From NCBI GenBank assembly GCA_964465205.1, contig CAYXJO010000002.1, positions 26,350 to 90,349 on the forward strand: 64,000 nt of DNA, in the 5' to 3' direction. Each line of letters begins with the position of its first letter. Position 1 is the stretch's first letter. Source of the stretch: an uncultured Gammaproteobacteria bacterium (GTDB lineage Bacteria; Patescibacteriota; Patescibacteriia; Magasanikbacterales; GWA2-37-8). Position numbers and translations under genes: made by a program. Below, in pieces: positions 8,331 through 38,354 of the stretch. The notes beneath the pieces were generated by a model. The model had not been told where the DNA came from. It saw only the letters and a program-made list of their open reading frames with translations, and did no database searches.

Positions 8331-8399
8331 ATAGTAGATATGTATTTTACGTGCCCTTCGACCGTAGGGAGCTTGGGCACTAAAATACATATCTACTAT
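8331..8399 (+). promoter_or_regulatory. Long near-perfect inverted repeat (25-bp arms, 18-nt loop) in the rpoB 5' leader; candidate RNase III processing or attenuator hairpin
   Basis: atagtagatatgtattttacgtgccc ... gggcactaaaatacatatctactat, located 57 nt upstream of the rpoB ATG. Confidence 0.45.
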
Positions 8400-8455
8400 C
8401 CAAGTGAAATAATTAGTTATTAATTTTAAAAATAAAAATAAATAAAAAATTTCCT

Positions 8456-15768: not shown

Positions 15769-15906
15769 GTGATTAAAAAACCGGCCTAGTAGTATAATAA
15801 TTTTCTGGCGGCCAGACTTGCCCTATCGGGCTACGCCCCGCGTGGCGGGGTGCGATGGCCGCTGGCGAAAATTATTATCTACTTCGGTCGGTTTTTTGTT
15901 AGCATA

Positions 15907-24000: not shown

Positions 24001-27000
24001 CTGCGAATCCGTTACGTATTGGGTCAACCGTAACTAGCAGTATTTTGGTAGTAAATAGCAGTGGCCATGTTGGTATTGGTACTTCTTCCCCACGGTATCA
24101 ATTACACATTGTTAATTCTGCGCCGCGCGAACAGGCGGTTTATTATCAAAATCTTCATAATAGTTACAGAAGCATGATTGTGGCAGATGCGTCCACCGAT
24201 GGATTGGGGGCCAATGGGTCTAGAATAGATTTTCGTGCTCACCCCACCGGATATAGTGAGACGTTATTTGGCACAACTATGGCAGGCAAATCTGCACTCA
24301 TATCCATATCCACTAATGGACTTATTGTTGGGGAATATAATGATCAGCCGGTTATTTTTGGCACTAACAATAAAGAGAGAATGAGGATTGCTAATACCGG
24401 CAATGTCGGTATTAGTACCACCTCCCCCAACTATCCTCTCACCGTAAACGGCGATATTAACATCACCAGCTCTACCGGTGGCATTCCAGCTTTACGTATC
24501 AACGGCACTGATATGAGTCAGTACTTCATTACCTCTGCTGGCACTGCTGGACAGATATGGCAATCTGACGGCACTGGTGCGGGAGAGTGGGTGAATACTT
24601 CTACACTAGGTATTGTCGGCGGCGGTATTACTTCCGAGTCTGATCCGATCTTCATGGCCGCCTCTTCTAGCTTTGCTTCTTCTACTCACAACCACGATGG
24701 TACCTACGAACCTGCCTTCTCTATTCTTACTATCATCAAAGGTGGTACCGGCACCTCTACTATCTCATCCAATGTTGGTTCGTTACTATATAGTGATGGT
24801 AGTGCCTACCAATTCACCAATGCCTCTACCGATAACTACGTACTCATGTCTCAAGGTGGTGTACCGACGTGGGTGACGACTTCGACGCTGGGTTTGGTGG
24901 CTGGGATTGGTTCGGGCACAGTTAATATTGGCACTGCTGGCCAGATCGCCTACTATGCCACCGATGGTGCTGCTGTGAGTGGCACATCTAGTTTGTTTGT
25001 AGCTGCGAATGGGTATGTGGGTATCGGTACTACTACACCTCGTTATTCTGTTGACGCGGGCACTGGTACTATCAGTGCTCTACGATTCCGTGTAGATAGT
25101 AAAGCTATGGCCTATTGGGATACGGCTGCTCCTAATTTACCGTCTGCTTATCCCAGTGGCACTTTAGTACTTGGGTTTGCCGGTACTGTTGGCAGTGCAG
25201 CATTTCCGAGCAGGTTAAATGCATATTCTACTTCCTATTTAGAAACGTATTACAATTCCGGCAATCCATATTTTGCGTTTATTGGTGGTAATGTGGGTGT
25301 AGGTACTACTTCTCCGTCCGCATCTCTATCTGTTATTGCTGCCACATCCACCGGTAGTATTTTCCAAGTCGGCACCACTACAGCGCAAAATATTTTAACA
25401 GTATTGGCGAATGGCCATGTTGGTATAGGTAGCTCTACCCCGAACTCTCCTTTGGTTTTGCAATATTCCAAATCAGGTTTTGGGCTCACCATTGCCAATT
25501 CGTTAGCGACAAATTATTCTTTGATGAGATTTTTGGGGACTGGGCGTTCTTACACTATTGGCGTTGGTAACGCCAGTGAGACTAGTTATGGTCTGGCCAA
25601 TAAGTGGTTTGTGTTTGATGCTACAAGTAATACAGCGCGCATGGTGGTTGATTCTGTTGGCAATATTGGTATTGGCACTACCACCCCAGATGCATCTTTG
25701 TCTATTTACACCACAACGGGTGCTGCTGGGATCATTTTGTCAGACTTTAATTCAAGTGAAGGTGGTGCATTAAGTATATATGATGGTGCCACTAGCGGAT
25801 TTTTGCCTACCATTAAAGGGCAATCAAATGGGGTTGGTGGGTATGGTGTGGCACTCTATGGCGTTATTCCACCAGCAAATGATGTAGTGAATGTCGGTGG
25901 TGGTGGAGTATTAATTAGAGCCCTTAGATCAGATAATACTGTTCTACAAAATGCCAATGTACTTAGTGTCAATAACTACACCACCAATTTGATGACTGTA
26001 ATGGCGAATGGTTATGTTGGTATTGGTACTACCACACCCGGATCCTTGTTGGATATTTATGGTAATAGTACCAATGCAGTTATGCGTATTTTGAGTGGAA
26101 ATACAAGCAATTATTCTTATATCACGATGGGTAGGGCTTCAGTCGAAATGTCTATGGGTGTAGCGGCTGCCGCGGATAATGGATTAGTGGGTACTGTAGC
26201 TGGTGATGTTTGGTTGAAGAATGTAAATACTGCCAATAAATTGTCTATAGGTATTGGGTCTGGCGCGCCTGCAATTACAGTGGCCAGTAGTAGCTATATA
26301 GGTATTGGCACTACCACTCCCAATTATCGCTTCACAATTGCGGGTACGTTTACCGGCAACGATCGTACAGCTATTAATTTAGCAAATTACAGTACCAATA
26401 GCGACGCTGCCATATCTATTAGATTCCAGTCCGGCACTTCTACTGGTTTTATAGGAGCGTATGATGCAGCTTATGCTTCTTTGCCGGGTTTAGGGAATAC
26501 TTTTGGTGTCAATGCTGTGGGTAACGCTACTACTTCATTATTCTTGATGTCTGGTAGCGCTTCTGGTGTGATGCGTTTTTATACTGGTGGTAATAACGAA
26601 AGAATGCGAATTGATTCTGCTGGCAATGTCGGTATTGGCACCACTACGCCAGCTTATAAATTCCAAGTGTATATTGACGCTAGTAACGAAGGTCATGTTA
26701 GCGCTACTGGTGATTGGGCGCGTACGTCCGATTCGCGGCTCAAGAAAAATGTTAATACGCTTACAAGTGCCTTGCAGATTATTGGCGCGTTACGTCCGAT
26801 ATCTTATGATCCGATTACCGGATCAAATACCGCGTCCGGTACCAGTTTGGGCTTCCTGGCTCAAGAAGTGGAGCCGCTTGTGCCGCAAGCCGTAGACACT
26901 AATTCAATAACAGGATACAAGTCAGTAGCTTATGGTCAGTTTATTCCGATCTTAACTGCCGCCATCAAAGAACAGCAAGCACAAATTGATGCGCTTACCA

Positions 27001-27215
27001 TTGGCTTGGCGAATAAGTCCACTTCGACATTGTCTGAGTTGACTCTCAACAGTAGTATCACCGGATTTACCAATAAAATTGATTTCAAAAATCATGTGAG
27101 TTTTGATGCAGATACGGTTGGTCGTGCCAGCATTTTGTCTGGCGCCACTAGCACCCGAGTGATATTTACCAAACCGTATGATGAGTTGCCAGTGATTACC
27201 GTTACGGCTATATGA
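18084..27215 (+). CDS. Giant (3043 aa) secreted, repeat-rich, tail-fibre-like surface protein with C-terminal intramolecular-chaperone auto-processing (Peptidase S74-like) domain
   Basis: N-terminal signal/anchor (TLGVVLTLSALVGIGEWVAHA). About 2700 aa rich in G/T/S/N with at least 6 copies of a ~60-aa module (GIGTTTPxYKLDVSGDxN...YSQYFIxxAGxxGQVWxSDGSGxGYW). C-terminus SDSRLKKNVNTLTSALQIIGALRPISYD...GFLAQEVEPLVPQAV...YGQFIPILTAAIKEQQAQIDAL matches the tailspike/endosialidase chaperone domain. Confidence 0.8.
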   Translation: MPNSLSQFGKKIFQTTLGVVLTLSALVGIGEWVAHAATPPLMITYQGKVLVSGAPATTSLNMSFVIYNSVSGGTALYSASGTLSTPLEVNVTPSNGLFSVNLGDTTAAPITNVLDPDIFKNNTNLFLQVTINGQTLSPRKRITASPYAFNALYAATSTYAENAGTSTYASTAGSANTANTSNYANNAGTSTYATNAASALTAVTSTYADLAGNSNLFAGLSTSSFLMPGNDASITGVWSFLSDLTISSTSIGQANITNLRVIGNSYGLQLADINGSSTLIYNTGTYADPAWLTSLAASKIVGTVGSALIANTSTYSYNAGTSTYAYFAGTSTYANIAGSALTAVTATYALNASTSNYANNSGKLEGYGANDFLASSTMALGVTGYMAYYPADGRNIAATNTIYISGGRIGLGTTALDASLAKVTIGGDIFAQNTSGAQLRWNSQGLLLRSPTGTLPRLDLRNDNNEFDFRIQLAGTKGLELFSGPSSTNQVSRLKIDDNGLVGINNSSPNYTLDVDGDINLTGALRVNNIDYSSYFIDGVGSNGQVWTSDGSGRGYWYTLPSASQASGVGTSTANLFAVYNGASTVTGTNELYLDGSYIGVGTTTPHYKLDVSGDLNISGAVRIGGADYSQYFINATGTLGQFWSSNGTGNSRGSWVNSPVNSGLIGQIAYYAAGGGTVSGTSTIYVYNGKIGIGGNTNPNYALDVSGAINSTGGYLINGVNYSQYFIDSAGSAGQVWVSSGTGRGYWYTLPSGSGYGVGTSTVGYMAVYSSDNVVTGTGAMMVSGTAILISTSGIYSASGNPAALTIGGALYADTLYASGNGIFMDNNKIIGIDSGILNVYGANNQSMQLQTYGSGNLSLVSNSTGQMLLQTGSGLMRLFSNTGGISVSTTNSAITVAVGGNNALTLRALQGSITISAPTITVSGTISGAATWHGNTIAVGYGGTGATTFASNGLLVGHGTSAVGTITVPTTTSFLYWNGASYDWTPIEQLSTLTGSVNSSTQGYVAYYDSSGNNLSGTSTVFIQNGRVGIGTVSPTGTLEVSANSLNTVGHLVVNRGNNGGLGGQLTLRNNSAGGSGTSAALAFELDGTTAFGSDGSDQANAQIRAQVTGASDKSTAIIFDTWNGSTSAERMRINANGNVGIGTTGGVYALTVNGDLNLTTSTAGASSTLRINGVDVGQYFINGAGVSGQVWASLGSGRGYWADISSLPIAGAVGTSTAGNIAWYDTTGANVTGTANIFIDPATGYFGVNNTAPATRMQIKGADNKDSGPILSLVGNAPNQFEGGRIRFLEDQSQGYLGAYIQYNASGDVLNIGVHAAADSATSSDTNAISVLRSNGYVGIGNSNPTYKFDVSGDVNIGGAGVLRLGGTNYSQYFISSAGVYGQVWTSDGSGAGWWSDPSIIESDPIFMAASSSFSRTTHNHAGVYEPAFSVLTIGKGGTGTSTISSNVGSLLYSNGTSYQFTNAATANYVLMSQGGVPTWVTTSTLGIVVGAGSGTINSGTAGQVAYYATNGTAVSGTSSLFIATNGYVGVGTSTPPSTLTVSGTLNVLVGGATYTMSNSSNIAGWFNVMNSTLNDYATVSMFHHQVNSTPANGFGTKIGLAGTGYDGVQDYTMGQIGAVWQSASNYYGQLQFFTRNGVDFTGTNSHIPKMVISGYSGNVGIGTTTPDYKLTTAVSADYDGIVLKDTVNKLLFAVVKEGNAGYFNLYDNGVKKIMLHPAANSYYNGSGNFGIGTTTPGALLDIGGGVVNTSISNARLLITANADEASGVQMYNSSAGTAADFRFSVINNNQNEYLAFATPGDGNTASLFGLTRSTANYIFNNAFGAGVSRHLAIGTVRNGDLVFAASSTERMRIANTGYIGIGTTTPNSLLSLYGGANDTRIKMNFVPTGNMYNGLELQKNGIFKGGIFYSNTRDVLELWGSQARMLSVSSTNISLLGSGVERLTVNSSGNVGVGTTTPTYQLDVIASSTANPLRIGSTVTSSILVVNSSGHVGIGTSSPRYQLHIVNSAPREQAVYYQNLHNSYRSMIVADASTDGLGANGSRIDFRAHPTGYSETLFGTTMAGKSALISISTNGLIVGEYNDQPVIFGTNNKERMRIANTGNVGISTTSPNYPLTVNGDINITSSTGGIPALRINGTDMSQYFITSAGTAGQIWQSDGTGAGEWVNTSTLGIVGGGITSESDPIFMAASSSFASSTHNHDGTYEPAFSILTIIKGGTGTSTISSNVGSLLYSDGSAYQFTNASTDNYVLMSQGGVPTWVTTSTLGLVAGIGSGTVNIGTAGQIAYYATDGAAVSGTSSLFVAANGYVGIGTTTPRYSVDAGTGTISALRFRVDSKAMAYWDTAAPNLPSAYPSGTLVLGFAGTVGSAAFPSRLNAYSTSYLETYYNSGNPYFAFIGGNVGVGTTSPSASLSVIAATSTGSIFQVGTTTAQNILTVLANGHVGIGSSTPNSPLVLQYSKSGFGLTIANSLATNYSLMRFLGTGRSYTIGVGNASETSYGLANKWFVFDATSNTARMVVDSVGNIGIGTTTPDASLSIYTTTGAAGIILSDFNSSEGGALSIYDGATSGFLPTIKGQSNGVGGYGVALYGVIPPANDVVNVGGGGVLIRALRSDNTVLQNANVLSVNNYTTNLMTVMANGYVGIGTTTPGSLLDIYGNSTNAVMRILSGNTSNYSYITMGRASVEMSMGVAAAADNGLVGTVAGDVWLKNVNTANKLSIGIGSGAPAITVASSSYIGIGTTTPNYRFTIAGTFTGNDRTAINLANYSTNSDAAISIRFQSGTSTGFIGAYDAAYASLPGLGNTFGVNAVGNATTSLFLMSGSASGVMRFYTGGNNERMRIDSAGNVGIGTTTPAYKFQVYIDASNEGHVSATGDWARTSDSRLKKNVNTLTSALQIIGALRPISYDPITGSNTASGTSLGFLAQEVEPLVPQAVDTNSITGYKSVAYGQFIPILTAAIKEQQAQIDALTIGLANKSTSTLSELTLNSSITGFTNKIDFKNHVSFDADTVGRASILSGATSTRVIFTKPYDELPVITVTAI
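22290..22700 (+). repeat. Intragenic duplicated segment (copy A) of the giant gene, ~80-85% identical to 24640..25050 with a 49-nt identical core
   Basis: tactcatgtctcaaggtggtgtaccgacgtgggtgacgacttcgacgct is present at 22498-22546 and 24838-24886. Flanking protein sequence ESDPIFMAASSSF..THNH..YEPAFS..GGTGTSTISSNVGSLLYS is repeated. Confidence 0.7.
24640..25050 (+). repeat. Intragenic duplicated segment (copy B) of the giant gene
   Basis: See copy A. Confidence 0.7.
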
Positions 27216-29473: not shown

Positions 29474-29492
29474 TCTGTTTTTTAATATCAAA

Positions 29493-30476
29493 CTACACTA
29501 GCTCTGGTTGGGTTTTGTTAAATTTTTTTATCATTTTTTCTACACCTTTTTTATCAAGTAACCCATTTTGGGCACCAAATTGTTGAATTACGCCGCAGCT
29601 ATTGGCGATGCCCCACTGCAAAGCAGTGGATAAATCGTGTTTCATAGCGCGTGCCGCCAAGTAACCCGATGAGAAAGCATCGCCGGCGCCGGTTTTGGCG
29701 ATTACTTCGACCGGGTAGCTATCGAGATGCCAGACATTTTCTTTGTCTCCTACCCAAGCGCCATTGCCACCATCGGTAATGGCGACTTCTTTGGCGCCCA
29801 TGTTTAATAATTTATGAATTAGAGCACGAACTGTTTTTTCTTTTTTTAATGTTGTATTGGCGATTAGTTCCGCTTCTTGTAAATTGATGACTAGCAAATC
29901 GATATGAGATAAAAATTCGCGTACATTTTCCAAGGTGTTTTTCAATTGATAAGAACCGGGATTCATGGCTACGCGTACGGACGGGTGTTTGGTGATCCAA
30001 GTTAATAAATTATTTTGGAGTGTTTCAAAACCTTCGCTTAAACCAGAATAGTAAATCCAATCACATTCTGGCATTTGTTTTGGCCAAGCATATTTACGTT
30101 TGGCATGATAAGAAAGAATTGTGCGTTCGCCTTTGAAATTGAGTACCACCGAATAGCGAGTTTTGGTTTTGGGATCAAAATATATCATGTCGGTGTTAAC
30201 CCCAAATTTTTGTAATTCACTACTTACCAATTCGCCGTTGGCATCACTGCCAATTGTAGTAATTATGGCAGTGGTTAGCCCGAGTTTGGCGGTGCCGCAA
30301 GCAACATTCGCCGCATTGCCGCCTAGATTTTGGAAGCTATCGGTAATGGGCACTTTACTGGCATAGTCTAAACATAGATGACAATGGTCTTGGTTGATGT
30401 CGCAATTTACGGTTGCAGCATCAATTTTTAGGTGAGTGTCAATCAGTGCGTCACCGATGGTGATAATTTTAAACAT
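29493..30476 (-). CDS. PfkB-family carbohydrate kinase (ribokinase/fructokinase-like)
   Basis: C-terminal TGAGDAFSSGYLAA signature and N-terminal GG motif region (NLGGNAANVA). Confidence 0.85.
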   Translation of the reverse strand: MFKIITIGDALIDTHLKIDAATVNCDINQDHCHLCLDYASKVPITDSFQNLGGNAANVACGTAKLGLTTAIITTIGSDANGELVSSELQKFGVNTDMIYFDPKTKTRYSVVLNFKGERTILSYHAKRKYAWPKQMPECDWIYYSGLSEGFETLQNNLLTWITKHPSVRVAMNPGSYQLKNTLENVREFLSHIDLLVINLQEAELIANTTLKKEKTVRALIHKLLNMGAKEVAITDGGNGAWVGDKENVWHLDSYPVEVIAKTGAGDAFSSGYLAARAMKHDLSTALQWGIANSCGVIQQFGAQNGLLDKKGVEKMIKKFNKTQPELV

Positions 30477-30493
30477 AGTTTGTTAGTTGTTAG

Positions 30494-30591
30494 ATAGCCT
30501 GCGGAATTTCTTTTGAGCGGGTTATGCCGCCGCAGTGGCATCCTCGAGCCCTCGCGGGCGAGAAAAGCGAAAAAGATTTTCCGCAGGCTAT
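30494..30591. repeat. Structured ~100-nt repeat element, copy 1: outer inverted repeat, conserved 17-nt left arm, copy-specific inner hairpin, conserved ~38-nt right arm
   Basis: atagcctgcggaa-TTTCTTTTGAGCGGGTT-atgccgccgcagtggcat-CCTCGAGCCCTCGCGGGCGAGAAAAGCGAAAAAGATTTT-ccgcaggctat. See copy 2 at 36866..36969. Confidence 0.6.
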
Positions 30592-30594
30592 ATA

Positions 30595-30909
30595 TTACAA
30601 TTCTGGATGTTTGTATTTTTCCACCATTTCGGTGCTGTGCAAATGTCGACCACTTATGATTTCTATTAATTCAATGAGGCTGGCCACTGCCACACCACCC
30701 ATCGCTACCATAAATATTTTGTTACCAATCCAGATGGCATACGTCATCAGGCACACCGCGCCTATCGCGAGTACCGCATCTTGTTTTTTTTCCGCCTCCA
30801 AAAAAATCGCGTAAATCATCATGATGGCTCCTAGACTAGCCAAAATATTGAATATAATTTCCGGCCAGGTCCAAGGCAGGTTGGGGAAGTATGAAAAAAT
30901 TGTATCCAT
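30595..30909 (-). CDS. Small 3-TM membrane protein, LAB_N-like (lipid-A-biosynthesis N-terminal domain family), paralog 1
   Basis: 104 aa. Pattern ..Q....G..CL..Y.I.....I...A.SL.E is shared with the adjacent 73-aa ORF. Confidence 0.45.
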   Translation of the reverse strand: MDTIFSYFPNLPWTWPEIIFNILASLGAIMMIYAIFLEAEKKQDAVLAIGAVCLMTYAIWIGNKIFMVAMGGVAVASLIELIEIISGRHLHSTEMVEKYKHPEL

Positions 30910-30924
30910 ATTATACTGGTTAAA

Positions 30925-31146
30925 TTATTTTTTTGTTTTAATTTTGTATATTTCCCACAAACTTGCGGCCGTGAAGATGATCTGTAGCGGAATAAAAATC
31001 GGATCGCGCAGATAAATACTATAAGCGAGTAAACATAATCCACCGGCAGCAAAAATCCAATCTTGGTTTGTTTCTTTTTTGGCGTAAATGCCCCAGGTAA
31101 TTAACAACACGCCGACTACTCCGAAAATTTTAGCAATTATAGGCAT
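30925..31146 (-). CDS. Small membrane protein, LAB_N-like, paralog 2
   Basis: YAKKETNQDWIFAAGGLCLLAYSIYLRDPIF resembles the LAB_N motif. Tandem with paralog 1. Confidence 0.45.
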   Translation of the reverse strand: MPIIAKIFGVVGVLLITWGIYAKKETNQDWIFAAGGLCLLAYSIYLRDPIFIPLQIIFTAASLWEIYKIKTKK

Positions 31147-31149
31147 AAT

Positions 31150-32094
31150 TTATTCTGTCCACCGATTGATATATTCAATTACTGCGAGTGCGGCCGTGAC
31201 ACCCTGTCCGGCGGCAATAGCAATTTGTTTGTAGGGGATATTAGTGACATCACCGGCGGCATAAATACCGGGCACATTAGTGCGACATTTGGCGTCCACC
31301 ACGATTTGTCCGACTTTATCTTTTTCTACCGGTACAAAATCTGAATTAGGCGTCATGCCGGCATGCACCATGATGCCGTTCACTTCAATTGTTTGTTCTT
31401 TGCCCTCGGCGTCCTTGTATTTTAGTGCGTTCGCCATTTTGTCGCCTACTATTTCTGTGGTTTGAGCGCCGTAAATTATTTCTACATTAGGTTGTTGTTT
31501 CACCTTTTCAATCAGTACATCTTCGCCTTTGGGGAAACCGCCTTTGTTTTCTGGCGTGTTAGTGTATTTAGAGATGAGGTAAACTTTTTTGGCGATATTG
31601 TTCATCATCAGTGCGGATTCGAGGGCGGCGTTGCCAGATCCAACTGTCGCCGTGATTTTGTTTTTAAAAAGTGGTCCATCGCATACCGTGCAATAAGTGA
31701 CGCCCTTGCGATCAAATTCTTTTTCACCGGGCACGCCCAGCTTGCGCGGGTGAATGCCGGTAGCGATAATTATGGCCTTGGTTTCAAAGCATTGTTCGGT
31801 ACCAGTAGCGTTTTGGGCACAAATGATCCAGTGATTTTTTTCTGGTTTTAGTTTGGTCGCGCGCCAACCTTGTTCGATTTCCACTCCGTATGATTTCACA
31901 TGTTCGGCAAAATTTTGTGCCAAAGTGAAACCTTGCACATCAATGATGCCCGGCCAATTGTTTACCGTGCCGGACAGAGCCACTTCGCCCCCAATATTAT
32001 CGGTAATTATTTTGAAGTTTAGTTTGCGACGCGCGCTGTACACGGCCGCACTGCATCCGGCCGCCGATGCCCCCAAAATTACGAGATCGAGCAT
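31150..32094 (-). CDS. trxB: Thioredoxin-disulfide reductase
   Basis: FAD GXGXXG (LGASAAGCSAAVY), redox-active CTVCDG and NADPH-binding motif. Size is 314 aa. Confidence 0.9.
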   Translation of the reverse strand: MLDLVILGASAAGCSAAVYSARRKLNFKIITDNIGGEVALSGTVNNWPGIIDVQGFTLAQNFAEHVKSYGVEIEQGWRATKLKPEKNHWIICAQNATGTEQCFETKAIIIATGIHPRKLGVPGEKEFDRKGVTYCTVCDGPLFKNKITATVGSGNAALESALMMNNIAKKVYLISKYTNTPENKGGFPKGEDVLIEKVKQQPNVEIIYGAQTTEIVGDKMANALKYKDAEGKEQTIEVNGIMVHAGMTPNSDFVPVEKDKVGQIVVDAKCRTNVPGIYAAGDVTNIPYKQIAIAAGQGVTAALAVIEYINRWTE

Positions 32095-32098
32095 AACT

Positions 32099-32734
32099 TT
32101 ACGAATTTAATTTGTTTAGTAAATTTTGATAAGCGATTTTTGTGTCTGCCGCACCCGTGATGGCGCTACCTACGCAGAAAGCATCTACGCCCCAGGATTT
32201 TATCTCGGCAATATTACCGGGTTTTACCGCGCCGTCCACCGCTATGGTTAGGCGCTCTGACGTTTGGCGACAACTAATAATTTTTTCTTTAATCTCAGGC
32301 AAAAATTCGCCACCCTGACGTCCGGGGTGAACGGTCATGAACAGCACTTCATCTATTTTATCATAAAAAGGCACGACCGTCGAGAGTGATGTTTCGGGGT
32401 TCACCGCAATGCCCACTTGCGCACAAATTCCACGAATTTTGGCGATAACTATATTTGGGTCGTCTTTGGATTCGACGTGAAAGATAATACGTTGAACATT
32501 TTTTATTCCAGACCATTTTTCCAGTTCGACTAGTGGATGTTCCACCATTAGGTGCAGTTCCCAATTGACATTTAAATTTAAGTTATTAATATTTTCAATT
32601 TCGTCAAAAGATTTGTTGTCTACAAATTGGCCGTCCATTACGTCGATTTGTATTAATTTAAAAGTCTCTTGCAGGCGTTGTGCTTGGGCGGCAAATTCGT
32701 CAAATGTCAATGCCAAAATAGTAGGTATAATCAT
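32099..32734 (-). CDS. rpe: Ribulose-phosphate 3-epimerase
   Basis: MIIPTILALTFDEF...IQIDVMDGQFV...HLMVEHP...MTVHPGRQGGEF. Start taken at MIIPT (32734), which abuts the rpiB stop. Confidence 0.85.
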   Translation of the reverse strand: MIIPTILALTFDEFAAQAQRLQETFKLIQIDVMDGQFVDNKSFDEIENINNLNLNVNWELHLMVEHPLVELEKWSGIKNVQRIIFHVESKDDPNIVIAKIRGICAQVGIAVNPETSLSTVVPFYDKIDEVLFMTVHPGRQGGEFLPEIKEKIISCRQTSERLTIAVDGAVKPGNIAEIKSWGVDAFCVGSAITGAADTKIAYQNLLNKLNS

Positions 32735-32741
32735 AATTTTT

Positions 32742-33185
32742 CTACCCTTCCAGTTCAGTGATTTTTTGATTACGTCGCACCAGACGTGGGTGGCCATCAA
32801 ACGGTGTTTCAAGAAATTTTTTTACAATTGCTGCGGCGTGCTCTTCGGTTAGGTATTTACTGGCTAAACATAAAATATTGGCATCATTGTGTTTGCGTCC
32901 CAATTCCGCACTTTCGATACTATATCCAGAAATAGCCCGGACGCCCTTGAATTTATTGGCCGTGATACACATTGAATGTCCGGTCCAGCAGATCAAAATA
33001 CCACGCTCATCCGGATTATTAGAGATTTTTTCTGCGACAGCCGTAGCAAAATCACTGGCGTCATCTTCGGGGTTGTGGGTAAAGGCGCCTAGATCTTCGT
33101 ATTCTACTTCTAATTGAGTGTGCAAATAGGTATTGAGATACTTTTTGAGCTGAAAACCACGGTGGTCAGCGGCGATATATAACAT
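32742..33185 (-). CDS. rpiB: Ribose-5-phosphate isomerase B (RpiB/LacAB family)
   Basis: MLYIAADHRGFQLK...GILICWTGHSMCITANK...ANILCL motifs. Size is 147 aa. Confidence 0.9.
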   Translation of the reverse strand: MLYIAADHRGFQLKKYLNTYLHTQLEVEYEDLGAFTHNPEDDASDFATAVAEKISNNPDERGILICWTGHSMCITANKFKGVRAISGYSIESAELGRKHNDANILCLASKYLTEEHAAAIVKKFLETPFDGHPRLVRRNQKITELEG

Positions 33186-33244
33186 AGTTGGTAAAATTAA
33201 ATATATGTTAATTATATCGCGCTGAGCTCTATTTTACAAGTTGT

Positions 33245-33272
33245 TTGACAGTTTTTGTTTTTCAGGTATAAT
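33245..33272 (+). promoter_or_regulatory. Promoter TTGACA-N16-TATAAT for the 33327 gene
   Basis: Read from the sequence. Confidence 0.4.
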
Positions 33273-33326
33273 TGTGACCGGTATTTTTTTGGTGTTATAC
33301 CTAAACCAAAACCAAGGAGGTACGCT

Positions 33327-33668
33327 ATGGAGCTGTTGTCGGGATTGGGTGCTTTGAAGGACTTTTTACGCCGTACCAAACGTCGTAAAGGGTCACTGCA
33401 TGTGTCTATCAAGGAGGCGAACCAGCAAAGCTTTCTATCTGGCAAGGTGACCAAAGACGGCATTAAATTGACCGAAACTGCTGTTGAGCTTACCTACCAC
33501 GATGGCAAGGCCAAGAATCCACACGTGACTTATATCGGCGAACACGCATCCAGTTCTGGTGCGAATCGCGATTCGGCCGAGTGGAGTCGCAAGTCGGCCT
33601 CTGGTTGGGTACAGGGCAAGGTGACCTTTGTGCCCGACAAACGAGCGGTGAAAAAGCCCAAAAAATGA
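33327..33668 (+). CDS. Hypothetical basic protein (113 aa)
   Basis: Strong SD aaggaggt 6 nt before the ATG. Followed by a clean terminator. No family recognised. Confidence 0.5.
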   Translation: MELLSGLGALKDFLRRTKRRKGSLHVSIKEANQQSFLSGKVTKDGIKLTETAVELTYHDGKAKNPHVTYIGEHASSSGANRDSAEWSRKSASGWVQGKVTFVPDKRAVKKPKK

Positions 33669-33689
33669 AGCGTTTCTGCTTCCAACCAA

Positions 33690-33716
33690 CACCCGGCCGT
33701 CTGGCCGGGCTTTTTT
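33690..33716 (+). terminator. Rho-independent terminator cccggccgtctggccggg + TTTTTT
   Basis: Perfect stem with T-run. Confidence 0.65.
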
Positions 33717-33730
33717 ATTCATACGCGTGG

Positions 33731-33926
33731 TTGACAGAATAGTAATTGAATGGTAATTTGTATATACAGCACTTGACCCGTTATCAGCGGGGAGCCGAAA
33801 GAAGAAATTCGCTTTTTGGCGAATATTAGACCTTTCCGGGGTGGCCCGTTATCGCCGCAATTAAGTAAAAGCACAAGATGGTACCGCCCTACACGGGCTC
33901 TTGGCACACAAAAAGTGTGTTTTTTT
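33731..33926 (+). promoter_or_regulatory. Candidate T-box leader (tRNA-Ile-responsive) upstream of ileS: promoter, AUC specifier candidates, T-box antiterminator-like element AAGA-UGGUACC-GCCC..GGGC-UCUU, then hairpin + U7
   Basis: TTGACA at 33731. Canonical 7-nt bulge UGGUACC at 33879-33885, with UGGU complementary to the ACCA end of tRNA-Ile. Flanking helices aaga/ucuu and gccc/gggc. cacac/gtgtg + TTTTTTT at 33904-33926. Located in front of ileS. Confidence 0.4.
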
Positions 33927-33941
33927 ATTATAAATCTAAGT

Positions 33942-36857
33942 ATGTATAATTCCAATGAAAACGAGCTTGAAATACTTAAATATTGGGACGACCATCAATG
34001 TTTTGAAAAATCGGTAAATGAACGACCGGAAAACAAGCCGTATCTTTTTTATGACGGTCCGCCATTCGCCACTGGATTGCCGCATTATGGTCACATTGTT
34101 GCGTCTTTGGAAAAAGATGTAGTACCACGTTATTTTACTATGCGCGGTTTTCGTGTAGAGCGTAAATGGGGGTGGGACTGTCACGGTTTGCCGATTGAAA
34201 ATATTATTGAAAAAGATCTCAACTTGACCAGTAAAAAAGATATCGAAAATTATGGCATAGATAAATTTAACGAAGCGTGTCGTGCCACTGTGTTGAAGTA
34301 TGCGTCTGAATGGAAAAAGACTATCAAACGTATGGGGAGGTGGGTGGATATGGAGCATGATTACAAGACCATGGATATTGATTATATGGAAAGCGTATGG
34401 TGGGTATTTCGTCAGCTTTGGGACAAAAACTTGCTCTACAAAGGTCACAAAGCCATGCATATTTGTCCACGTTGCGTAACACCGCTTTCCAATTTTGAGG
34501 TGACTCAAGGATATAAAGATGTCAAAGATATTTCGGTAACGGTGAAATTCAAATTAAAAAATGTTAAAGAAAAATTGAATCTGACTGACGAAGTTTATGT
34601 TTTGGCTTGGACTACCACCCCATGGACCTTGCCAGGTAATGTACTCTTGGCTGTCGGTAGGGGCATGGATTATGCAGCGGTAGCAATTGAGGGAGAGTCC
34701 GGTGTATATTTATTGGCACACGAAAGACTCGAAGCGGTATTAAAAAATAAAAATTATAAAATTATAGAGAATTTTAGTGGTGATCAGTTGATTGGCTTAG
34801 ATTATGAGCCCCTGTTTTCATATTTTGCCGATACCGCCAAAGCTTTTCGGGTGGTAGATGGCACTGCCTTTGTTACCACAGTAGATGGCACTGGCGTGGT
34901 TCATATTGCGCCGGCATTTGGAGAAGAAGACTATCAAGTGGGTAAACGTGAAGGCTTGCCGCTCGTCCAACATGTGGGTATGGATGGTCGTTTTGTAGAA
35001 GAGGTGCTGGATTTTGCCGGTCAGGAGGTAAAACCAACCGAACAGCCAACAGCTACTGATGTAGAGGTTATCAAATGGCTTGATGCTAATAATAAATTGT
35101 TTAGCAAAGAGGGGTTTATTCATAGCTATCCACATTGTTGGCGCTGTGATGCACCGCTTTTGAATTATGCGACTAATTGTTGGTTTGTAAAAGTGACCGA
35201 GATGAAAGAAGAACTGTTAGCCAATAATCAAAAAATTAATTGGGTACCGGAGCATATCAAAGATGGCCGTTTTGGCCAGTGGCTCGAAGGTGCGCGTGAT
35301 TGGGCAATATCACGTAATCGTTTTTGGGGCACACCGCTACCGGTGTGGGAGAGCGCAGATGGAGATGTTATTTGTGTAGGTAGTGTGCAAGAGTTGGAAG
35401 AATTGACTGGTGCCAAAGTGACCGATCTTCACAAACACAAAATTGATAATTTAGAAATTAATAAAAATGGCAAAGTGTACCGCCGTATTCCGGAAGTATT
35501 GGACTGCTGGTTTGAATCAGGAAGTATGCCGTATGGTCAAATGCACTATCCGTTTGAAAATAAAACCAAATTTGAAGCCAGCTTCCCGGCAGATTTCATT
35601 GCCGAAGCGCAGGATCAAACTCGTGGTTGGTTTTATACTTTGCACGTATTGGCCACTGCTCTAACTCGTGCTCCCCATTCGTCAATTCCAGTGGACACTA
35701 GCACCGCCGCTTTCAAAAATGTAATTGTACACGGTATTGTGTTGGCCGAAGATGGCAAGAAAATGTCCAAACGTCTCAAAAACTATCCAGAACCGGATAT
35801 TATCTTGGAGAAGTATGGGGCTGATGCTATGAGGTATTATCTCATAAGCTCGCCAGTGCTAGACGGAGAGAATCTCAATTTTTCCGAAGCGAATGTGCGT
35901 GAAGTTTACACCAAACTTATTAACACTCTTTGGAATGTTGTTGAGTTTTACAAAATGTATGCTGGAGATAAAAACAGTGCCGAAGTTACCAGCGAACATG
36001 TGCTCGACAAATGGATTTTGGCCAAGTTGAAAGAGTTGATCAAAGATGTTTCTGCTGGATTTGAGAGCTACCAACTCACTCGCGCCTCGCGTCCAATTTT
36101 GGATTTTGTTACCGAGTTATCGCAATGGTATGTGCGTCGCAGTCGTGATCGTTTCAAGGGTGATGACACGCAAGACAAAGCGGCGGCCGTAGCTACTCTA
36201 CGCGAAGTGTTATTAACATTATCCAAAGTGATGGCCCCATTTACTCCATTTATGGCTGAAAAAATTTATCAAGAAATGGGTGGCACGAGCGAAAGCGTGC
36301 ATTTGGAAATGTGGCCAGAAATCGCGACGTATGAAGAACACGTGCTTACTGATATGGTACGTGCTCGTAAAATTGTCGAGCTTGGTTTGGCGGCGCGCGC
36401 TGAGCAGGGGATTAAAATTCGTCAACCACTACAGCATGTTTATTATCAGGCGGAAAAACTATCCCCAGGTTTAGAGGATGTTATTGCCGACGAGCTTAAT
36501 GTAAAGCATGTTGTGCATACTACGGAAGTTACAGAGCAAGCGAACCGTGTAATCAAGGAAGACGCTATTTTGAAAGTTGGTTTGGATGTTGTTGTATCCG
36601 AAGAATTAAAAAAAGAAGGTTTGGCTCGCGAAATTGTGCGCACTATTAATCAGATGCGTAAAAATGCGAAACTAACTGTCAATGATGTAGTGAGTGTAGT
36701 TTATGAAACCGAAGACGAGTTGCTCGCCTCGGTGTTTGTGGAATACAGTGCGGAAATATCCAAGAGTGTGTTGGCCAAAGAAATAAAATCTGGCAAAGTT
36801 TCAGGTGAAGCTGTGGAACTCGATGGTCGCACTGTAAAAATCGAAGTAAAAAAATAA
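33942..36857 (+). CDS. ileS: Isoleucine--tRNA ligase (long, type-2-like form)
   Basis: HIGH-like GLPHYGHIVAS and KMSKRLKNYPEP motifs, with editing domain. Homology begins at MYNSNENELEILKYW (33942); the tracked ORF starts earlier at 33816. Confidence 0.95.
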   Translation: MYNSNENELEILKYWDDHQCFEKSVNERPENKPYLFYDGPPFATGLPHYGHIVASLEKDVVPRYFTMRGFRVERKWGWDCHGLPIENIIEKDLNLTSKKDIENYGIDKFNEACRATVLKYASEWKKTIKRMGRWVDMEHDYKTMDIDYMESVWWVFRQLWDKNLLYKGHKAMHICPRCVTPLSNFEVTQGYKDVKDISVTVKFKLKNVKEKLNLTDEVYVLAWTTTPWTLPGNVLLAVGRGMDYAAVAIEGESGVYLLAHERLEAVLKNKNYKIIENFSGDQLIGLDYEPLFSYFADTAKAFRVVDGTAFVTTVDGTGVVHIAPAFGEEDYQVGKREGLPLVQHVGMDGRFVEEVLDFAGQEVKPTEQPTATDVEVIKWLDANNKLFSKEGFIHSYPHCWRCDAPLLNYATNCWFVKVTEMKEELLANNQKINWVPEHIKDGRFGQWLEGARDWAISRNRFWGTPLPVWESADGDVICVGSVQELEELTGAKVTDLHKHKIDNLEINKNGKVYRRIPEVLDCWFESGSMPYGQMHYPFENKTKFEASFPADFIAEAQDQTRGWFYTLHVLATALTRAPHSSIPVDTSTAAFKNVIVHGIVLAEDGKKMSKRLKNYPEPDIILEKYGADAMRYYLISSPVLDGENLNFSEANVREVYTKLINTLWNVVEFYKMYAGDKNSAEVTSEHVLDKWILAKLKELIKDVSAGFESYQLTRASRPILDFVTELSQWYVRRSRDRFKGDDTQDKAAAVATLREVLLTLSKVMAPFTPFMAEKIYQEMGGTSESVHLEMWPEIATYEEHVLTDMVRARKIVELGLAARAEQGIKIRQPLQHVYYQAEKLSPGLEDVIADELNVKHVVHTTEVTEQANRVIKEDAILKVGLDVVVSEELKKEGLAREIVRTINQMRKNAKLTVNDVVSVVYETEDELLASVFVEYSAEISKSVLAKEIKSGKVSGEAVELDGRTVKIEVKK

Positions 36858-36865
36858 AGGCAAAA

Positions 36866-36969
36866 TTAAAAAGGCCGGATACAATTTCTTTTGAGCGGGT
36901 TTGGACCCACAGGTCCACCTCGAGCCCTCGCGGGAGAGAAAAGCGAAAAAGATTTTGTATCCGGCCTTT
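36866..36969. repeat. Structured repeat element, copy 2; also acts as a bidirectional terminator between ileS and the convergent 36981 gene
   Basis: aaaaaggccggatacaa-TTTCTTTTGAGCGGGTT-tggacccacaggtccac-CTCGAGCCCTCGCGGGAGAGAAAAGCGAAAAAGATTTT-ttgtatccggcctttt. Core nearly identical to copy 1; outer and inner stems differ but remain self-complementary. Confidence 0.6.
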
Positions 36970-36980
36970 TGTTAAATACT

Positions 36981-38354
36981 TTATTTCGGCAGCATCTTCT
37001 TGAAACTAGCCAACTCCGCATGATAAATCTTCGTCATCTTATTATTAAACTCTTCTGGCAAAGTTTCAGCATCTTTAGTAGTGGTAAAATGTTTGACATA
37101 TTCCGACCACGGATGCAGGTGTTTGAGTTTATTGCGGGTAAACAGTTTCGCATAAAGCGATTGGTAATTTTTTTTGTGCAACGCGTAGAAAGAAAAATCC
37201 AATTCGTGTGCCGACCCAGTAGCGAATTCTGTTCCAAAGTAATGGTCAAACATGTGGGGAGTACGTAGTAGATTTTTTTGGTAGCCTATTTTTGCCGGGT
37301 CTACATCAGCTACTGCAGCAAACAGGAACATGCGTGCGCATTTGTAACATTTGTGGCACCACTGCGACCCTTTTGGCAACGGAAGTTCCGCGCTACATGA
37401 AAATTGGTACTTGCCATATTCTGGGTAGCGATGATGCAAGATGTAGAAAATATTTATTTCATCTAATGGTTGAAATGTACTACGTACCCCGCATTGGTTA
37501 TTGGTGAGTAGGCGTACAATATTATTTTGATTGTCGGTGTTTTCTGGTGTCTGGTCACACGACAGCCATTCTTTCCAACCGTTGTTCCATTCGTATTCGT
37601 TGTTGGAATATTCACTGCCAAATAAAATGTATTTGGCGCCGTGTTTTAGAGCAAACGGTACCATCATTATGGCCAACACGGTAGTTTGTGTGCCCCAGCC
37701 TAGTTCGGTACGCGCAATACCAAAAGCTTTGCCGTAGCGGAATAATCCGGTGTCGTTTTGGAGAAAATAATATTTGAGGCCGAATTCTTTACTAAATTCT
37801 TTTAGTTTTTTCAATTTGTATGCCTGTTCATATGGTTGGGAAGGCTCCTGGCAGTATACCAAAATTGGTTCTATACCAACTTCGCGACAAAGAGCGACAG
37901 TGGTCAGGCTTTCTTTGCCAAAGGTAAATGGCACAATCGCCACTGGCTTTTTATTTTTTATAGTTTTGATTTCTTTTGGATCGGGGAAGGTAGAGTGCCC
38001 GCCCGGTTTGTAGACGGTTTCTAAATTATAGAATTGTTGTAAATAATGGAGTGTCGGTTTGTTATCGCCGGTCGCACAGTTTATTAAGTCTTGAATTTGA
38101 TTTTTGTATAATAGATTCTCTGTAATGGGCGGGTTGGTGTTATATATTACTTTTTTCTTTTTTAAAGCCAACGGCACCACTTGAGTGGTGGCGTAAGTGA
38201 GATTCTCCAGCAAAGTTTGCTTTACGGAATTGGGAATACCACGCCAGACTTCTGTAGGGTATTCAATATCGTAATGTTTTTTTTGAATATCAATACGGAC
38301 GCCGCGATTGGTCACATGGGCATCTATATATAAGACGTTTTTGTCAGAAGACAT
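36981..38354 (-). CDS. QueC-like / PP-loop-like adenine nucleotide alpha-hydrolase superfamily protein with C-terminal C-x12-C-x2-C-x2-C zinc motif and N-terminal extension (457 aa)
   Basis: Degenerate PP-loop VAIVPFTFGKESLTTVAL and Cys cluster CSAELPLPKGSQWCHKCYKC resembling the QueC zinc site. Start overlaps the stop of the upstream ATP-grasp gene. Confidence 0.45.
   Translation of the reverse strand: MSSDKNVLYIDAHVTNRGVRIDIQKKHYDIEYPTEVWRGIPNSVKQTLLENLTYATTQVVPLALKKKKVIYNTNPPITENLLYKNQIQDLINCATGDNKPTLHYLQQFYNLETVYKPGGHSTFPDPKEIKTIKNKKPVAIVPFTFGKESLTTVALCREVGIEPILVYCQEPSQPYEQAYKLKKLKEFSKEFGLKYYFLQNDTGLFRYGKAFGIARTELGWGTQTTVLAIMMVPFALKHGAKYILFGSEYSNNEYEWNNGWKEWLSCDQTPENTDNQNNIVRLLTNNQCGVRSTFQPLDEINIFYILHHRYPEYGKYQFSCSAELPLPKGSQWCHKCYKCARMFLFAAVADVDPAKIGYQKNLLRTPHMFDHYFGTEFATGSAHELDFSFYALHKKNYQSLYAKLFTRNKLKHLHPWSEYVKHFTTTKDAETLPEEFNNKMTKIYHAELASFKKMLPK

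Follow-up and report, generated by a model that had tools for sequence, protein, structure and literature searches.

What are two near-identical cores, each closed by a stem unrelated to the other, doing in separate intergenic spaces of a Patescibacteria genome? The question is raised by a 64-kb stretch of DNA (the window), all genes of which are housekeeping genes, and in which an earlier note made from the letters had described two structured copies with a shared core. Both are confirmed: copy 1, outer stem and core together, occupies 30494..30591 of the + strand, and copy 2, core and terminator stem, occupies 36868-36970 of the + strand, its start lying at 36868 and not at 36866 as first given.

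Two copies of one folded core

The core common to the two copies is 74-76 nt long and differs between them by one base and one inner hairpin; the shared blocks AATTTCTTTTGAGCGGGTT and CCTCGAGCCCTCGCGGG[C/A]GAGAAAAGCGAAAAAGATTTT are near-identical, as the note had reported, with a single mismatch, and identity stops sharply at AATTTC and at GATTTT. Core 17-mers are found only at the two copy sites in 64 kb, shuffles give an expected 0.06 and 0.36 matches even with 3 mismatches allowed, and scanning the window with a covariance model turns up no third copy. A third core match at 17146 was set aside as chance, with 3 mismatches and a position inside coding sequence. On the + strand the copies fold at -52.8 kcal/mol (copy 1; z -6.35, 94.5 bits with model R1) and -50.9 kcal/mol (copy 2), with z about -6.3.

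The module is closed by a helix of its own two ends, AAUUUCUUUU with AAAAGAUUUU, and continues through a tandem sheared G·A/A·G loop, two G-C pairs, a sequence-variable hairpin, a semi-conserved hairpin with a UCGC loop and often a second tandem G·A, and an A-rich junction strand; the left end lies about 19 nt from the foot of the first of the two hairpins. In the 76-nt core of copy 1 (30505..30580, + strand) the pairing ends AATTTCTTTT and AAAAGATTTT lead to the first tandem G·A loop (30515-16 with 30569-70), the GC/GC pairs and a three-way junction, from which arise variable hairpin 1 (30524..30541, + strand; ATGCCGC-CGCA-GTGGCAT, with one G·U pair on the + strand) and hairpin P3 (30544..30563, + strand; TC-GA-GCCC-TCGC-GGGC-GA-GA, with a tandem G·A loop of 30546-47 with 30560-61), followed by the A-rich junction strand. 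The 74-nt core of copy 2 (36883..36956, + strand) has TGGACC-CACA-GGTCCA as variable hairpin 1 (36902..36917, + strand), and the only other base by which its core departs from that of copy 1, C to A at 36935, lies in its P3 (36920..36939, + strand). Both outer stems pair without a mismatch and are mutually unrelated; with the conserved AA/TT pairs included, that of copy 1 has 13 bp and that of copy 2 has 16 bp. The idea that both copies carry compensatory, copy-specific stems holds for the inner hairpins (30524-30541 and 36902-36917), which differ in sequence and still pair, and fails for the outer stem of copy 2, which is the host terminator stem (below).

As noted before, the copies give rise to spurious ORFs, 30524-30814 and 36891-37268, which both encode PRALAGEKSEKDF. 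In one homologue (L013, with PRVLAHEKSEKI) the changes at this position compensate the helix yet alter the peptide, and the element is therefore non-coding. It looks like neither an ordinary gene nor a chance repeat.

Copy 2 and the ileS terminator

The isoleucyl-tRNA synthetase gene ileS (33816..36857, + strand; Pfam PF00133, PF08264, PF19302) has its stop codon 10 nt upstream of copy 2, and a convergent, conserved hypothetical gene of 457 aa (36981..38354, - strand) has its stop codon 10 nt from the other side. Copy 2 thus lies between an A-run and a T-run with convergent genes on either side, a context that fits a bidirectional terminator, and the earlier assignment of copy 2 to the ileS terminator is borne out by a homologous simple terminator in relatives, located through orthologues of the 457-aa gene. 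An 81%-identical relative terminates ileS with a simple hairpin whose stem is homologous, and the window core, at the position of the apical loop, falls exactly within that loop: AAAAAGGCGGAGA-GGGG-TCTCCGCCTTTTT of the relative corresponds to AAAAGGCCGGATAC-[74 nt]-GTATCCGGCCTTTT of the window, with conserved flanks. The 5' arm of copy 2 (36868..36882, + strand; AAAAAGGCCGGATAC) is homologous to AAAAAGGCGGAGA in L029-L032, the 3' arm (36957..36970, + strand; GTATCCGGCCTTTT) to TCTCCGCCTTTTT in L029; conservation continues into the flank downstream, TTTTTAATT...CTTCGATTTTTAC. When the 74-nt core is subtracted, the copy 2 intergenic region measures 48 nt and is collinear with the 45-nt region of the relative. 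The outer stem of copy 2 thus belongs to the host terminator and is no compensatory helix of the element.

Copy 1 and its empty site

Copy 1 is located inside an operon. Its outer stem (5' arm 30494..30504, + strand, ATAGCCTGCGG, unique in the window; 3' arm 30581..30591, + strand, CCGCAGGCTAT) is followed in gene sense by a 17-nt A/C-rich spacer (30477..30493, - strand; CTAACAACTAACAAACT on the gene strand) that leads to the start codon of a pfkB-family kinase gene (29493..30476, - strand; Pfam PF00294) directly downstream, and on the other side a conserved hypothetical gene of 104 aa (30595..30909, - strand) has its stop codon 3 nt from copy 1. Through pfkB orthologues, the site was found empty in three relatives, L004, L007 and L019: the gap between the pfkB and 104-aa genes is 1-4 nt there vs 118 nt in the window, the 104-aa gene has the same length and abuts pfkB, and hairpin, core and 17-nt spacer are all extra in the window. 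No counterpart of the outer stem and no pre-existing hairpin is seen at this site in the relatives. The earlier suggestion that a tiny element inserts into the loops of existing terminators is therefore upheld for copy 2, with its orthologous simple terminator, and not for copy 1. In the reading preferred below, copy 1 is the same module, extended by an 11-bp stem layer and a 17-nt leader and inserted between otherwise translationally coupled genes. A similar spacer, of 18 nt, separates the element from the tsaC start in the homologues L010/L012.

Homologues, covariation and strand

A search of relatives for the core, which the note had proposed, returned five members beyond the two copies, four in other Patescibacteria-type contigs and one 205-nt rod-shaped relative (L004); one homologue is identical in three independent assemblies. 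All members adopt the same three-way junction fold with strong covariation. In the model-fitted alignment 85% of cells pair and both sides have changed in 14 of 31 pairs; the covariation score is 0.49, against 0.13 in shuffles (0 of 500 reach the observed value) and at most 0.07 in slid controls. The conserved single strands and co-varying helices that had been noted in the two copies are thus real and extend to the homologues; host genomes range over 37-47% G+C, and across them the junction nucleotides are conserved and the helices covary. The top of the P3 stem covaries in L013 (CCC/GGG to TGC/GCA), P3 of L010 and L014 has Watson-Crick U-A/C-G in place of the G·A/A·G pairs, and the first helix layer common to copies 1 and 2 is not shared by the other members. 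Of 12 symmetric 2x2 loops, 9 show GA/GA, always on one and the same strand, and the 205-nt relative contains five or six such loops (z -11.8); because the tandem G·A loops occur on one strand only, the structure is strand-specific.

The element is rare. An exact-pattern search of 185,579 species gave four representative genomes with one match each, and about 180 kb of related Patescibacteria-type contigs hold no member besides the 205-nt relative in L004/L005. The Rfam scan returned no family at threshold for the window, either copy or the L004 relative, the sole resemblance being that of the L004 rod to HgcC (18 bits vs a threshold of 50), and no known IS or MITE end was found to match the core, a match that the note had named as a refutation. 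The same genomes also contain branched terminator hairpins built on other cores (window 15775-15897 and L033:6336-6435).

The homologues occupy the prfB/tsaC gap, sites upstream of an O-antigen ligase gene and of a CcdA-like gene, and the gap between DPBB-domain and HhH-GPD genes. Three of the seven members (copy 2, L016 and L004) lie inside A-run/T-run bidirectional terminators; U-rich sequence follows the stem in these three and, after a short gap, in L010, and no U-tract follows the hairpin in copy 1, L013 or L014. Among four unidirectional contexts two members are sense and two antisense to the flanking genes, and in the antisense cases, copy 1 and L010/L012, the G·A-bearing strand is antisense to both co-directional neighbours; such mixed orientation is as expected for insertion and not for a cis-acting mRNA signal. 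Orientation has no consistent relation to local GC skew.

Presence also differs between near-identical strains: L012 has the element, and L040, a 99%-identical strain, has an unrelated hairpin at the same site. The flanks are 99.4% and 98.5% identical and the whole stop-to-start intergenic segment differs, so that this is a whole-segment replacement and not a clean insertion; it resembles allelic replacement by homologous recombination.

Relation to known elements

MITE-like repeats (Correia, ERIC, RUP, BOX and SPRITE, the last a pneumococcal terminator-like element; PMC10969869) share with the element a small, non-coding, intergenic, stable stem-loop with inverted-repeat ends, found in either orientation, at or as a terminator, and variably present among relatives. 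Unlike them, the element has no visible direct target-site duplication or known parent insertion sequence, is seen at only one or two copies per genome, conserves an asymmetric three-way junction with tandem G·A instead of terminal repeats, and has one copy exactly in a hairpin loop. IS1397, ISKpn1 and IS621, which insert into REP sequences (PMC1525189), and the class C group II introns found with intrinsic terminators (PMC4424553) likewise have a safe landing site in an intergenic hairpin or terminator. They are 1-2 kb in length and encode an enzyme or ribozyme of their own, and the insertion site of the introns lies after the hairpin, whereas the element, at about 75 nt, has no coding content and is placed within the loop. 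Together with its A-run and T-run, the outer stem of copy 2 makes up an intrinsic (rho-independent) bidirectional terminator, but one whose loop is replaced by a 74-nt branched module, and copy 1 lies within an operon with no U-tract. Double-hairpin elements or GC clusters of fungal and algal mitochondria are small, G+C-rich mobile elements with two conserved hairpins in A+T-rich intergenic DNA; they are organellar rather than bacterial, occur in many copies and are not known to share sequence with the element.

Alternative explanations

The deep conservation of junction nucleotides over genomes of 37-47% G+C, with covarying helices, is equally well explained by a structured RNA module that benefits the host, being a selected and not selfish part of mRNA 3' ends or intercistronic regions, where its role would be to strengthen terminators, to stop 3'-to-5' exonucleases or to bind protein; its spread between sites and strains would be due to ordinary recombination alone. 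Tandem sheared G·A motifs are a usual feature of functional RNAs, and here they are confined to one strand; this reading also accommodates the three terminator-borne members and the recombination-like L012/L040 difference, and the other branched terminators mean that terminator branching may be a lineage habit. We consider it possible, if on the unlikely side: the mRNA over copy 1 and L010/L012 carries the complement, turning G·A loops into U·C/C·U mismatches, three members (copy 1, L013 and L014) lack a U-tract, and the element is very rare in relatives having the same genes. The reading as a free-standing small RNA gene, with its own + strand promoter and ended by its own stem, gains from the independence of the structured strand from neighbouring gene direction, the stable fold (z about -6) and the U-rich sequence after four of the stems. 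We judge it quite improbable, given that neither copy has a promoter-like site upstream on the + strand, no upstream motif is conserved among the members, the structured strand runs antisense to both neighbours in 2 of 4 unidirectional contexts, copy 2 clearly forms the loop of a terminator that was already there, the hairpin fills the intergenic space almost exactly, the stems have no other match in the window, and two copies differing only in stems would be odd for a trans-acting RNA.

Movement as single-stranded DNA, as a REP/REPIN with RAYT or a miniature IS200/IS605 derivative mobilized by a tyrosine HUH transposase encoded elsewhere, is improbable. REPINs, too, are long hairpins outside genes that are imperfect in a strand-specific way, show compensatory changes and are believed to move in the form of a folded single strand (PMC3116915), and REPs are similar to IS200/IS605 subterminal hairpins (PMC3333891); the conserved mismatches of the element's imperfect, strand-specific hairpins, its two hairpins with a foot about 19 nt from the left end, and its extragenic sites in both orientations agree with this. 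REPINs, however, have a variable spacer between two inverted REPs that are conserved, number tens to hundreds of copies and come with a RAYT gene; the element has a conserved, asymmetric centre and variable stems at one or two copies per genome, no RAYT was seen and no Y1 transposase is encoded in the 64-kb window, the flanking tetranucleotide is not conserved (GCGG before copy 1, ATAC before copy 2), and orientation does not track local GC skew consistently. Least probable, and by our estimate very much so, is that no dedicated mechanism exists and hairpin tips are copied between intergenic hairpins by template switching at stalled replication forks. The variable boundaries of the shared segment, with a first helix layer shared by copies 1 and 2 only, the low copy number with no enzyme found, and several unrelated branched tips in the same genomes are all compatible with it, but it leaves unexplained both the junction conservation and one-strand tandem G·A across distant genomes and copy 1 itself, where there was no hairpin to convert.

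A proposed low-copy insertion module

The reading that we prefer, at about even confidence, is that the conserved block of 74-76 nt is an insertion module of Patescibacteria (CPR; the host being Magasanikbacteria-like), small, devoid of coding sequence and highly structured, that lodges in intergenic hairpins. It is found at different, non-orthologous intergenic sites across genomes, in either orientation, and its presence varies among relatives, down to strains with about 99% identical flanking genes; on comparison of orthologous sites, insertion is shown at copy 2, copy 1 and L012/L040. Several points count against this reading: no transposase, HUH enzyme, reverse transcriptase or integrase is encoded in the 64-kb window, no direct target-site duplication is visible, and there are only two copies in the window. 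The inner hairpin differs fully between otherwise identical copies, which simple copy-and-paste leaves unexplained, and because the outer stem and spacer of copy 1 have no identified source, the moving unit would lack fixed ends.

The element looks like a rare, undescribed insertion element. As an insertion module it would have moved as a unit, now or recently, through an activity encoded elsewhere or through recombination between hairpin tips, and a mobilizing or binding factor may recognize the strand-specific junction and G·A motifs in a single-stranded form, either RNA or single-stranded DNA. Because the module ends pair, the host hairpin would re-close once the module has inserted, so that termination or operon continuity would be kept and insertion would be nearly neutral.

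Two copies of a conserved module and their setting

Two copies of a structured element lie on the forward strand of the window, copy 1 at 30494-30591 and copy 2 at 36868-36970; both are present as the earlier note had claimed, except that copy 2 starts 2 nt further in. The copies have in common the blocks AATTTCTTTTGAGCGGGTT and CCTCGAGCCCTCGCGGG(C/A)GAGAAAAGCGAAAAAGATTTT, with a single mismatch between them, and with up to three mismatches allowed the two blocks have no further site in the 64-kb window, for shuffle expectations of 0.06 and 0.36; a three-mismatch match to a block at 17146 falls inside coding DNA and was set aside as chance. The two-copy repeat far exceeds chance. Identity between the copies ends sharply at both edges, delimiting a core of 74-76 nt (30505-30580 and 36883-36956) that is non-coding and holds no transposase. 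Its only ORFs (30524-30814 and 36891-37268) are spurious and do both encode PRALAGEKSEKDF, as the same note had read; changes in homologues are compensatory for the helices and non-synonymous for the peptide, and six-frame core peptides, compared with a protein database in search of such ORFs elsewhere, gave zero matches.

Around and within this core, the predicted helices are retained while their sequences differ. The outer stems of the two copies are both perfect and mutually unrelated, and the inner hairpins are unlike in sequence with pairing kept in each, both as first described. Three of the six stem pairs of the variable hairpin (hairpin 1) are changed on both sides between the copies and its loops are alike (CGCA and CACA); hairpin 1 may simply be the single unconstrained helix of the core. 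In both window copies, 8 of 10 positions are paired between the core ends AATTTCTTTT and AAAAGATTTT; other members of the family have an end helix of different sequence, which makes these ends putative termini. On the plus strand the copies fold at -52.8 and -50.9 kcal/mol, respectively (z about -6.3), the minus strand being somewhat less stable.

The named homologues of the pfkB-family kinase, together with a 130-kb NCBI contig that encodes an identical protein, place the window in Patescibacteria (Candidate Phyla Radiation), near Candidatus Magasanikbacteria. Copy 1 sits between two co-directional minus-strand genes: a 104-aa gene, whose stop it follows by 3 nt, and pfkB, whose start it precedes by 17 nt. 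Copy 2 separates ileS from a convergent 457-aa gene, with about 10 nt between it and either stop codon. The proposal that copy 2 serves as the bidirectional terminator of ileS agrees with its outer stem and A5/T4 runs, the convergent genes and its homology to the simple terminator of relatives; a simple terminator scanner missed it because its loop limit is 8 nt. The features of an intrinsic terminator, a G+C-rich hairpin plus a U-tract where a transcription unit ends, are found in the outer stem of copy 2 and not in copy 1, and across the family U-tracts 3' of the stem are limited to members in a terminator context. A promoter scanner gave no plus-strand promoter at either copy, and the members have no conserved upstream motif. 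The window genes scanned are all housekeeping genes (sigma factor, recA, ftsK, rpoB, rpoC, ruvA, ruvC, ileS, gatA, gatB, pyrB, pyrI and others), with no transposase (Y1 included), HUH enzyme, reverse transcriptase, integrase or IS found among those of the 64-kb window.

Further members of the family

Exact-pattern scans of public collections returned further members at loci L010, L012, L013, L014 and L016. The L010 and L012 members have the same sequence and lie between prfB and a tsaC/Sua5 gene; that of L012 (CAZBWU010000001.1; locus G+C 38%) is identical to the one on metagenome contig JACCDN011077714.1. The L013 member comes from a Magasanikiibacteriota MAG, and those of L014 and L016 from Patescibacteria MAGs. 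Since the L014 member was recovered identically in three independent assemblies, it is not an assembly artefact. At that locus (L014:3604-3630, also L038:5745-5770) the frame of an upstream 147-aa gene reads through the 5' arm of the outer stem and stops at the conserved TGA of TTTGAGCGGG, so that its last residues and stop codon come from the element.

A covariance model, R1, built from six distinct members scores true members at 66-95 bits; it detects no copy in the window besides the two, and about 180 kb of other Patescibacteria-type contigs yielded none. Exact-pattern matches number one in each of four GTDB representative genomes, against two copies in the 64 kb of the window. The search pattern for L012-L016 demanded AGCGGGTT and GAGAAAAGCGAAAA, so their invariance there is partly a search effect; the CCTC motif, the UCGC loop and the overall architecture stood outside its requirements. 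A first genome-collection pattern, GAGCCCTCGCGGGNGAGAAAAGCG, gave zero matches and was too strict, since other members carry TCGCCC there. Four scan matches from metagenomes and genomes (L011, L015, L017 and L018) are not detected by R1 and were dismissed as chance, three viral-contig scans returned only chance matches in G+C-rich coding DNA, and blastn against plasmid and phage collections reached at best E about 10.

An Rfam scan, which the earlier note had suggested, assigned neither copy to a family, and the whole window stayed below gathering thresholds, small ribozyme and sRNA families included. At E up to 10, searches of 30300-37200, the rod-shaped relative at L004 (see below) and two other structured gaps gave only a weak HgcC match and microRNA-precursor look-alikes.

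A shared architecture with covarying helices

All members have one architecture, in which a long outer helix leads through a 2x2 loop and two G-C pairs into a three-way junction with hairpin 1, a semi-conserved hairpin (P3) and an AAA junction strand. The symmetric 2x2 loop near the junction reads 5'-GA-3' on both strands, that is, as tandem G·A/A·G. Hairpin 1 has a GG/CC base and a UU bulge, with a stem sequence unique to each member. P3 follows the pattern UC-(GA or UC)-G...C-GA-GA with a mostly UCGC loop; its G·A/A·G pairs, present in four members, are replaced by Watson-Crick U-A/C-G in two, and the top of its stem changes from CCC/GGG to UGC/GCA in L013.

The claim of covarying helices holds across the family: in an alignment fitted to R1, pairing is kept in 85% of cells, with both sides changed in 14 of 31 pairs. 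The covariation score is 0.49, compared with 0.13 for shuffles (0 of 500 reach the observed value) and at most 0.07 with partners slid; these figures are flattered by the model-fitted alignment, and a hand alignment gives a like pattern.

The structure also points to one strand. In unconstrained folds, 9 of 12 symmetric 2x2 loops carry GA/GA on one and the same strand, the opposite strand would turn the tandem G·A loops into U·C/C·U mismatches, and G·U pairs show a modest bias to the G·A-bearing strand. Flanked as pyrimidine-GA-purine, tandem sheared G·A pairs form stable structures in RNA and DNA alike; the motifs therefore indicate a single-stranded functional form and do not discriminate between RNA and DNA. 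Judged from these sequence features, the conserved junction and one-strand G·A motifs imply that a folded single strand is recognised, perhaps by a mobilising enzyme or a binding protein.

Among the four unidirectional contexts, two (L013 and L014) have the G·A strand as sense and two (copy 1 and L010/L012) have it as antisense; the remaining three members lie between convergent genes. A tie of orientation to the replication strand was rejected, local GC skew and the structured strand giving a mixed picture, as was the idea of the stems as guides to other sites, the stems having zero matches in the rest of the window and in the other loci compared.

Filled and empty orthologous sites

The main weight of the argument for insertion is carried by orthologous-site comparisons. 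At the copy 2 site, loci L029-L032, whose 457-aa protein is 81% identical, have the convergent pair 51 nt apart, and the gap holds a plain bidirectional terminator, AAAAAGGCGGAGA-GGGG-TCTCCGCCTTTTT. The window reads AAAAGGCCGGATAC-[74 nt]-GTATCCGGCCTTTT with the downstream flank of L029-L032, and without the 74 nt the two intergenic regions align over their full length. Copy 2 therefore owes its outer stem to the host terminator, and its core takes the place of the former loop. This overturns the earlier view of that stem as a covarying helix of the element itself, the stem being homologous to that of L029-L032, and for copy 2 bears out the alternative offered alongside it, insertion into the loop of a terminator.

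At the copy 1 site, the distance from the 104-aa gene to pfkB is 4 nt in L004-L006, 1 nt in L007-L009 and 1 nt in L019 (PfkB identity to the window 79%, 69% and 76%, respectively), and the window has 118 nt there, made up of hairpin, core and a 17-nt A/C-rich spacer. No older hairpin is visible at this site in any of these loci.

The third comparison involves L012 and its close relative L040, in which the flanking genes are 99.4% and 98.5% identical and the full segment from prfB stop to tsaC start differs, with 109 nt including the element in L012 and an unrelated 73-nt imperfect hairpin in L040. The arms of the latter (L040:2270-2342) consist of GTTCnnA heptads (GTTCGCA GTTCAAA GTTCTCA ...). 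Hairpin 1 of L012 shares 8 nt, ATGTTCGC, with the L040 hairpin; at a chance expectation of roughly 0.1-0.2 by estimate, this was given no weight.

A rod-shaped relative of 205 nt lies between convergent pfkB and DJ-1 genes in L004 (4932-5136; also L005:2986-3190). Its junction is that of the element, with GA-GC-G, a CGCA-loop hairpin, a P3 ending CCCGCCC-UCGC-GGGCGGG and then AA-GC-GA. The stem is far longer, interrupted by five or six more GA/GA loops (-105 kcal/mol, z -11.8), with an outer stem of 23 bp carrying A and T runs. The corresponding site is occupied in L019 by a plain terminator, AAAAAAGACAGA-loop-TCTGTCTTTTTT, and is only a 19-nt gap in the window (29474-29492). The similar stem base of the L019 terminator suggests that the rod may be a second terminator-loop insertion.

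Other structured segments in the window and its relatives

Directly 3' of rpoC, window 15775-15897 folds as a 123-nt hairpin bounded by A6 and T6; its outer stem, of 31 nt, is A+T-rich and leads to a G+C-rich three-way junction with two small hairpins, and its core sequence is unlike the element's (-70.8 kcal/mol on the plus strand and -63.8 on the minus strand); it appears to be another branched terminator. In L033 (6336-6435), a relative with 64% identity, the terminator that follows a 458-aa gene (AAAAAAGCCCCACTTTG / CAAAGTGGGGCTTTT) contains an insert of another kind, about 50 nt long and forming two small hairpins. Terminators with branched tips and unrelated cores seem to be a recurrent feature of the lineage. 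The L013 contig carries, besides its family member, a very stable 215-nt hairpin (7239-7453; -103 kcal/mol) with ends CCGCTCGAGC / GCTCGAGCGG and a G+C-rich interior.

Just 5' of rpoB, window 8246-8455 consists of nested inverted repeats with a perfect 21-bp stem (8329-8349 with 8381-8401) round a G+C-rich hairpin, for which Rfam gave no family and only microRNA-precursor look-alikes. The rpoB gene itself is in two overlapping frames (8456-10792 and 10680-11867) with Pfam domain 6 broken at profile position 111; a recoding site, a frameshift or an error in the sequence could each explain the split. Between recA and a gene with an HTH domain lies a 650-nt gap (3060-3706) that has short ORFs only and zero Rfam matches at E up to 1, and contains a strongly folding 184-nt segment (3295-3478; -72 and -82 kcal/mol on the two strands). 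Finally, 18084-27215 is a 3043-aa ORF that matches Pfam only in a C-terminal Peptidase_S74 (endosialidase chaperone) domain.

Discussion

We propose that a small structured module has been inserted repeatedly, in either orientation, into intergenic slots, the slot at copy 2 being the apical loop of a terminator. The host stem would continue into the module and the terminator hairpin would still form, because the module ends pair. Such insertion would account for the sharp identity edges, the unrelated outer stems, the mixed orientation and the differences in presence between relatives; the origin of the 11-bp outer stem and spacer of copy 1, the completely different hairpin 1 in two otherwise identical cores, the low copy number and the moving agent lie outside the model. 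The family is small, and we infer its mechanism of movement.

The main rival explanation is a host-beneficial RNA module spread by recombination. The two antisense placements speak against a cis role in mRNA, the informative cases numbering only four. As for the structured RNA first proposed, the structure itself stands, and the reading as a free-standing small RNA gene is probably wrong, given that the scanner gave no promoter at either copy. Beyond the insertion of a module, a bolder reading, to which we give a low probability, is a new class of nucleic acid, defined by its structure and without a protein of its own, that specifically targets the apical loops of hairpins between genes. Its movement would rely on some Patescibacteria enzyme that reads the three-way junction with its tandem G·A pairs, or would be mediated by RNA, and rod relatives would grow by the addition of G·A-separated helix layers.

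Closest in behaviour to the inserted module are the bacterial stem-loop-forming miniature repeats, among which is the terminator-like SPRITE element (PMC10969869). The use of a hairpin as landing site is common to the element, to IS1397/IS621 at REPs (PMC1525189) and to class C group II introns at terminators (PMC4424553). Like a MITE, the element is short and non-coding with no transposase inside; it differs in that many copies are not in evidence in the sequences scanned and target-site duplication is absent, the copy 2 flanks being the inverted arms of the host hairpin and no direct repeat lying beside copy 1. From REPINs (PMC3116915), with their tens to hundreds of copies and a RAYT gene in the genome, it differs in low copy number in the sequences scanned and in conservation that is central and asymmetric, rather than in two inverted REPs round a less conserved spacer. 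The constant tetra- or pentanucleotide 5' flank of IS200/IS605 is lacking (GCGG at copy 1, ATAC at copy 2), and, set against the subterminal hairpins of that type, the element has two internal hairpins of which only one is conserved. No paired R boxes of an integron attC (RYYYAAC ... GTTRRRY at the base) occur in the flanks or stems, conservation being at the tip, and the 2x2 loops that hold the tandem G·A pairs are symmetric, lacking the three-nucleotide bulge of a kink-turn. A hammerhead and group II domain V were ruled out on sequence inspection. The element is not a member of any named family; it is undescribed and structurally distinctive.

Descriptions of mobile elements or non-coding RNAs are few for Patescibacteria, whose genomes are tiny and tightly packed. 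The element creates spurious ORFs and could lead predictions of terminators and operons in these genomes astray, and, since strains differ in its carriage, it could serve as a strain marker. If the module does settle in terminator loops without breaking them, this would be a neat "safe-site" strategy and a new structured motif for RNA and repeat catalogues; if, on the other hand, the module is a host RNA, an undescribed system for RNA binding or for the protection of 3' ends would be indicated in the lineage.
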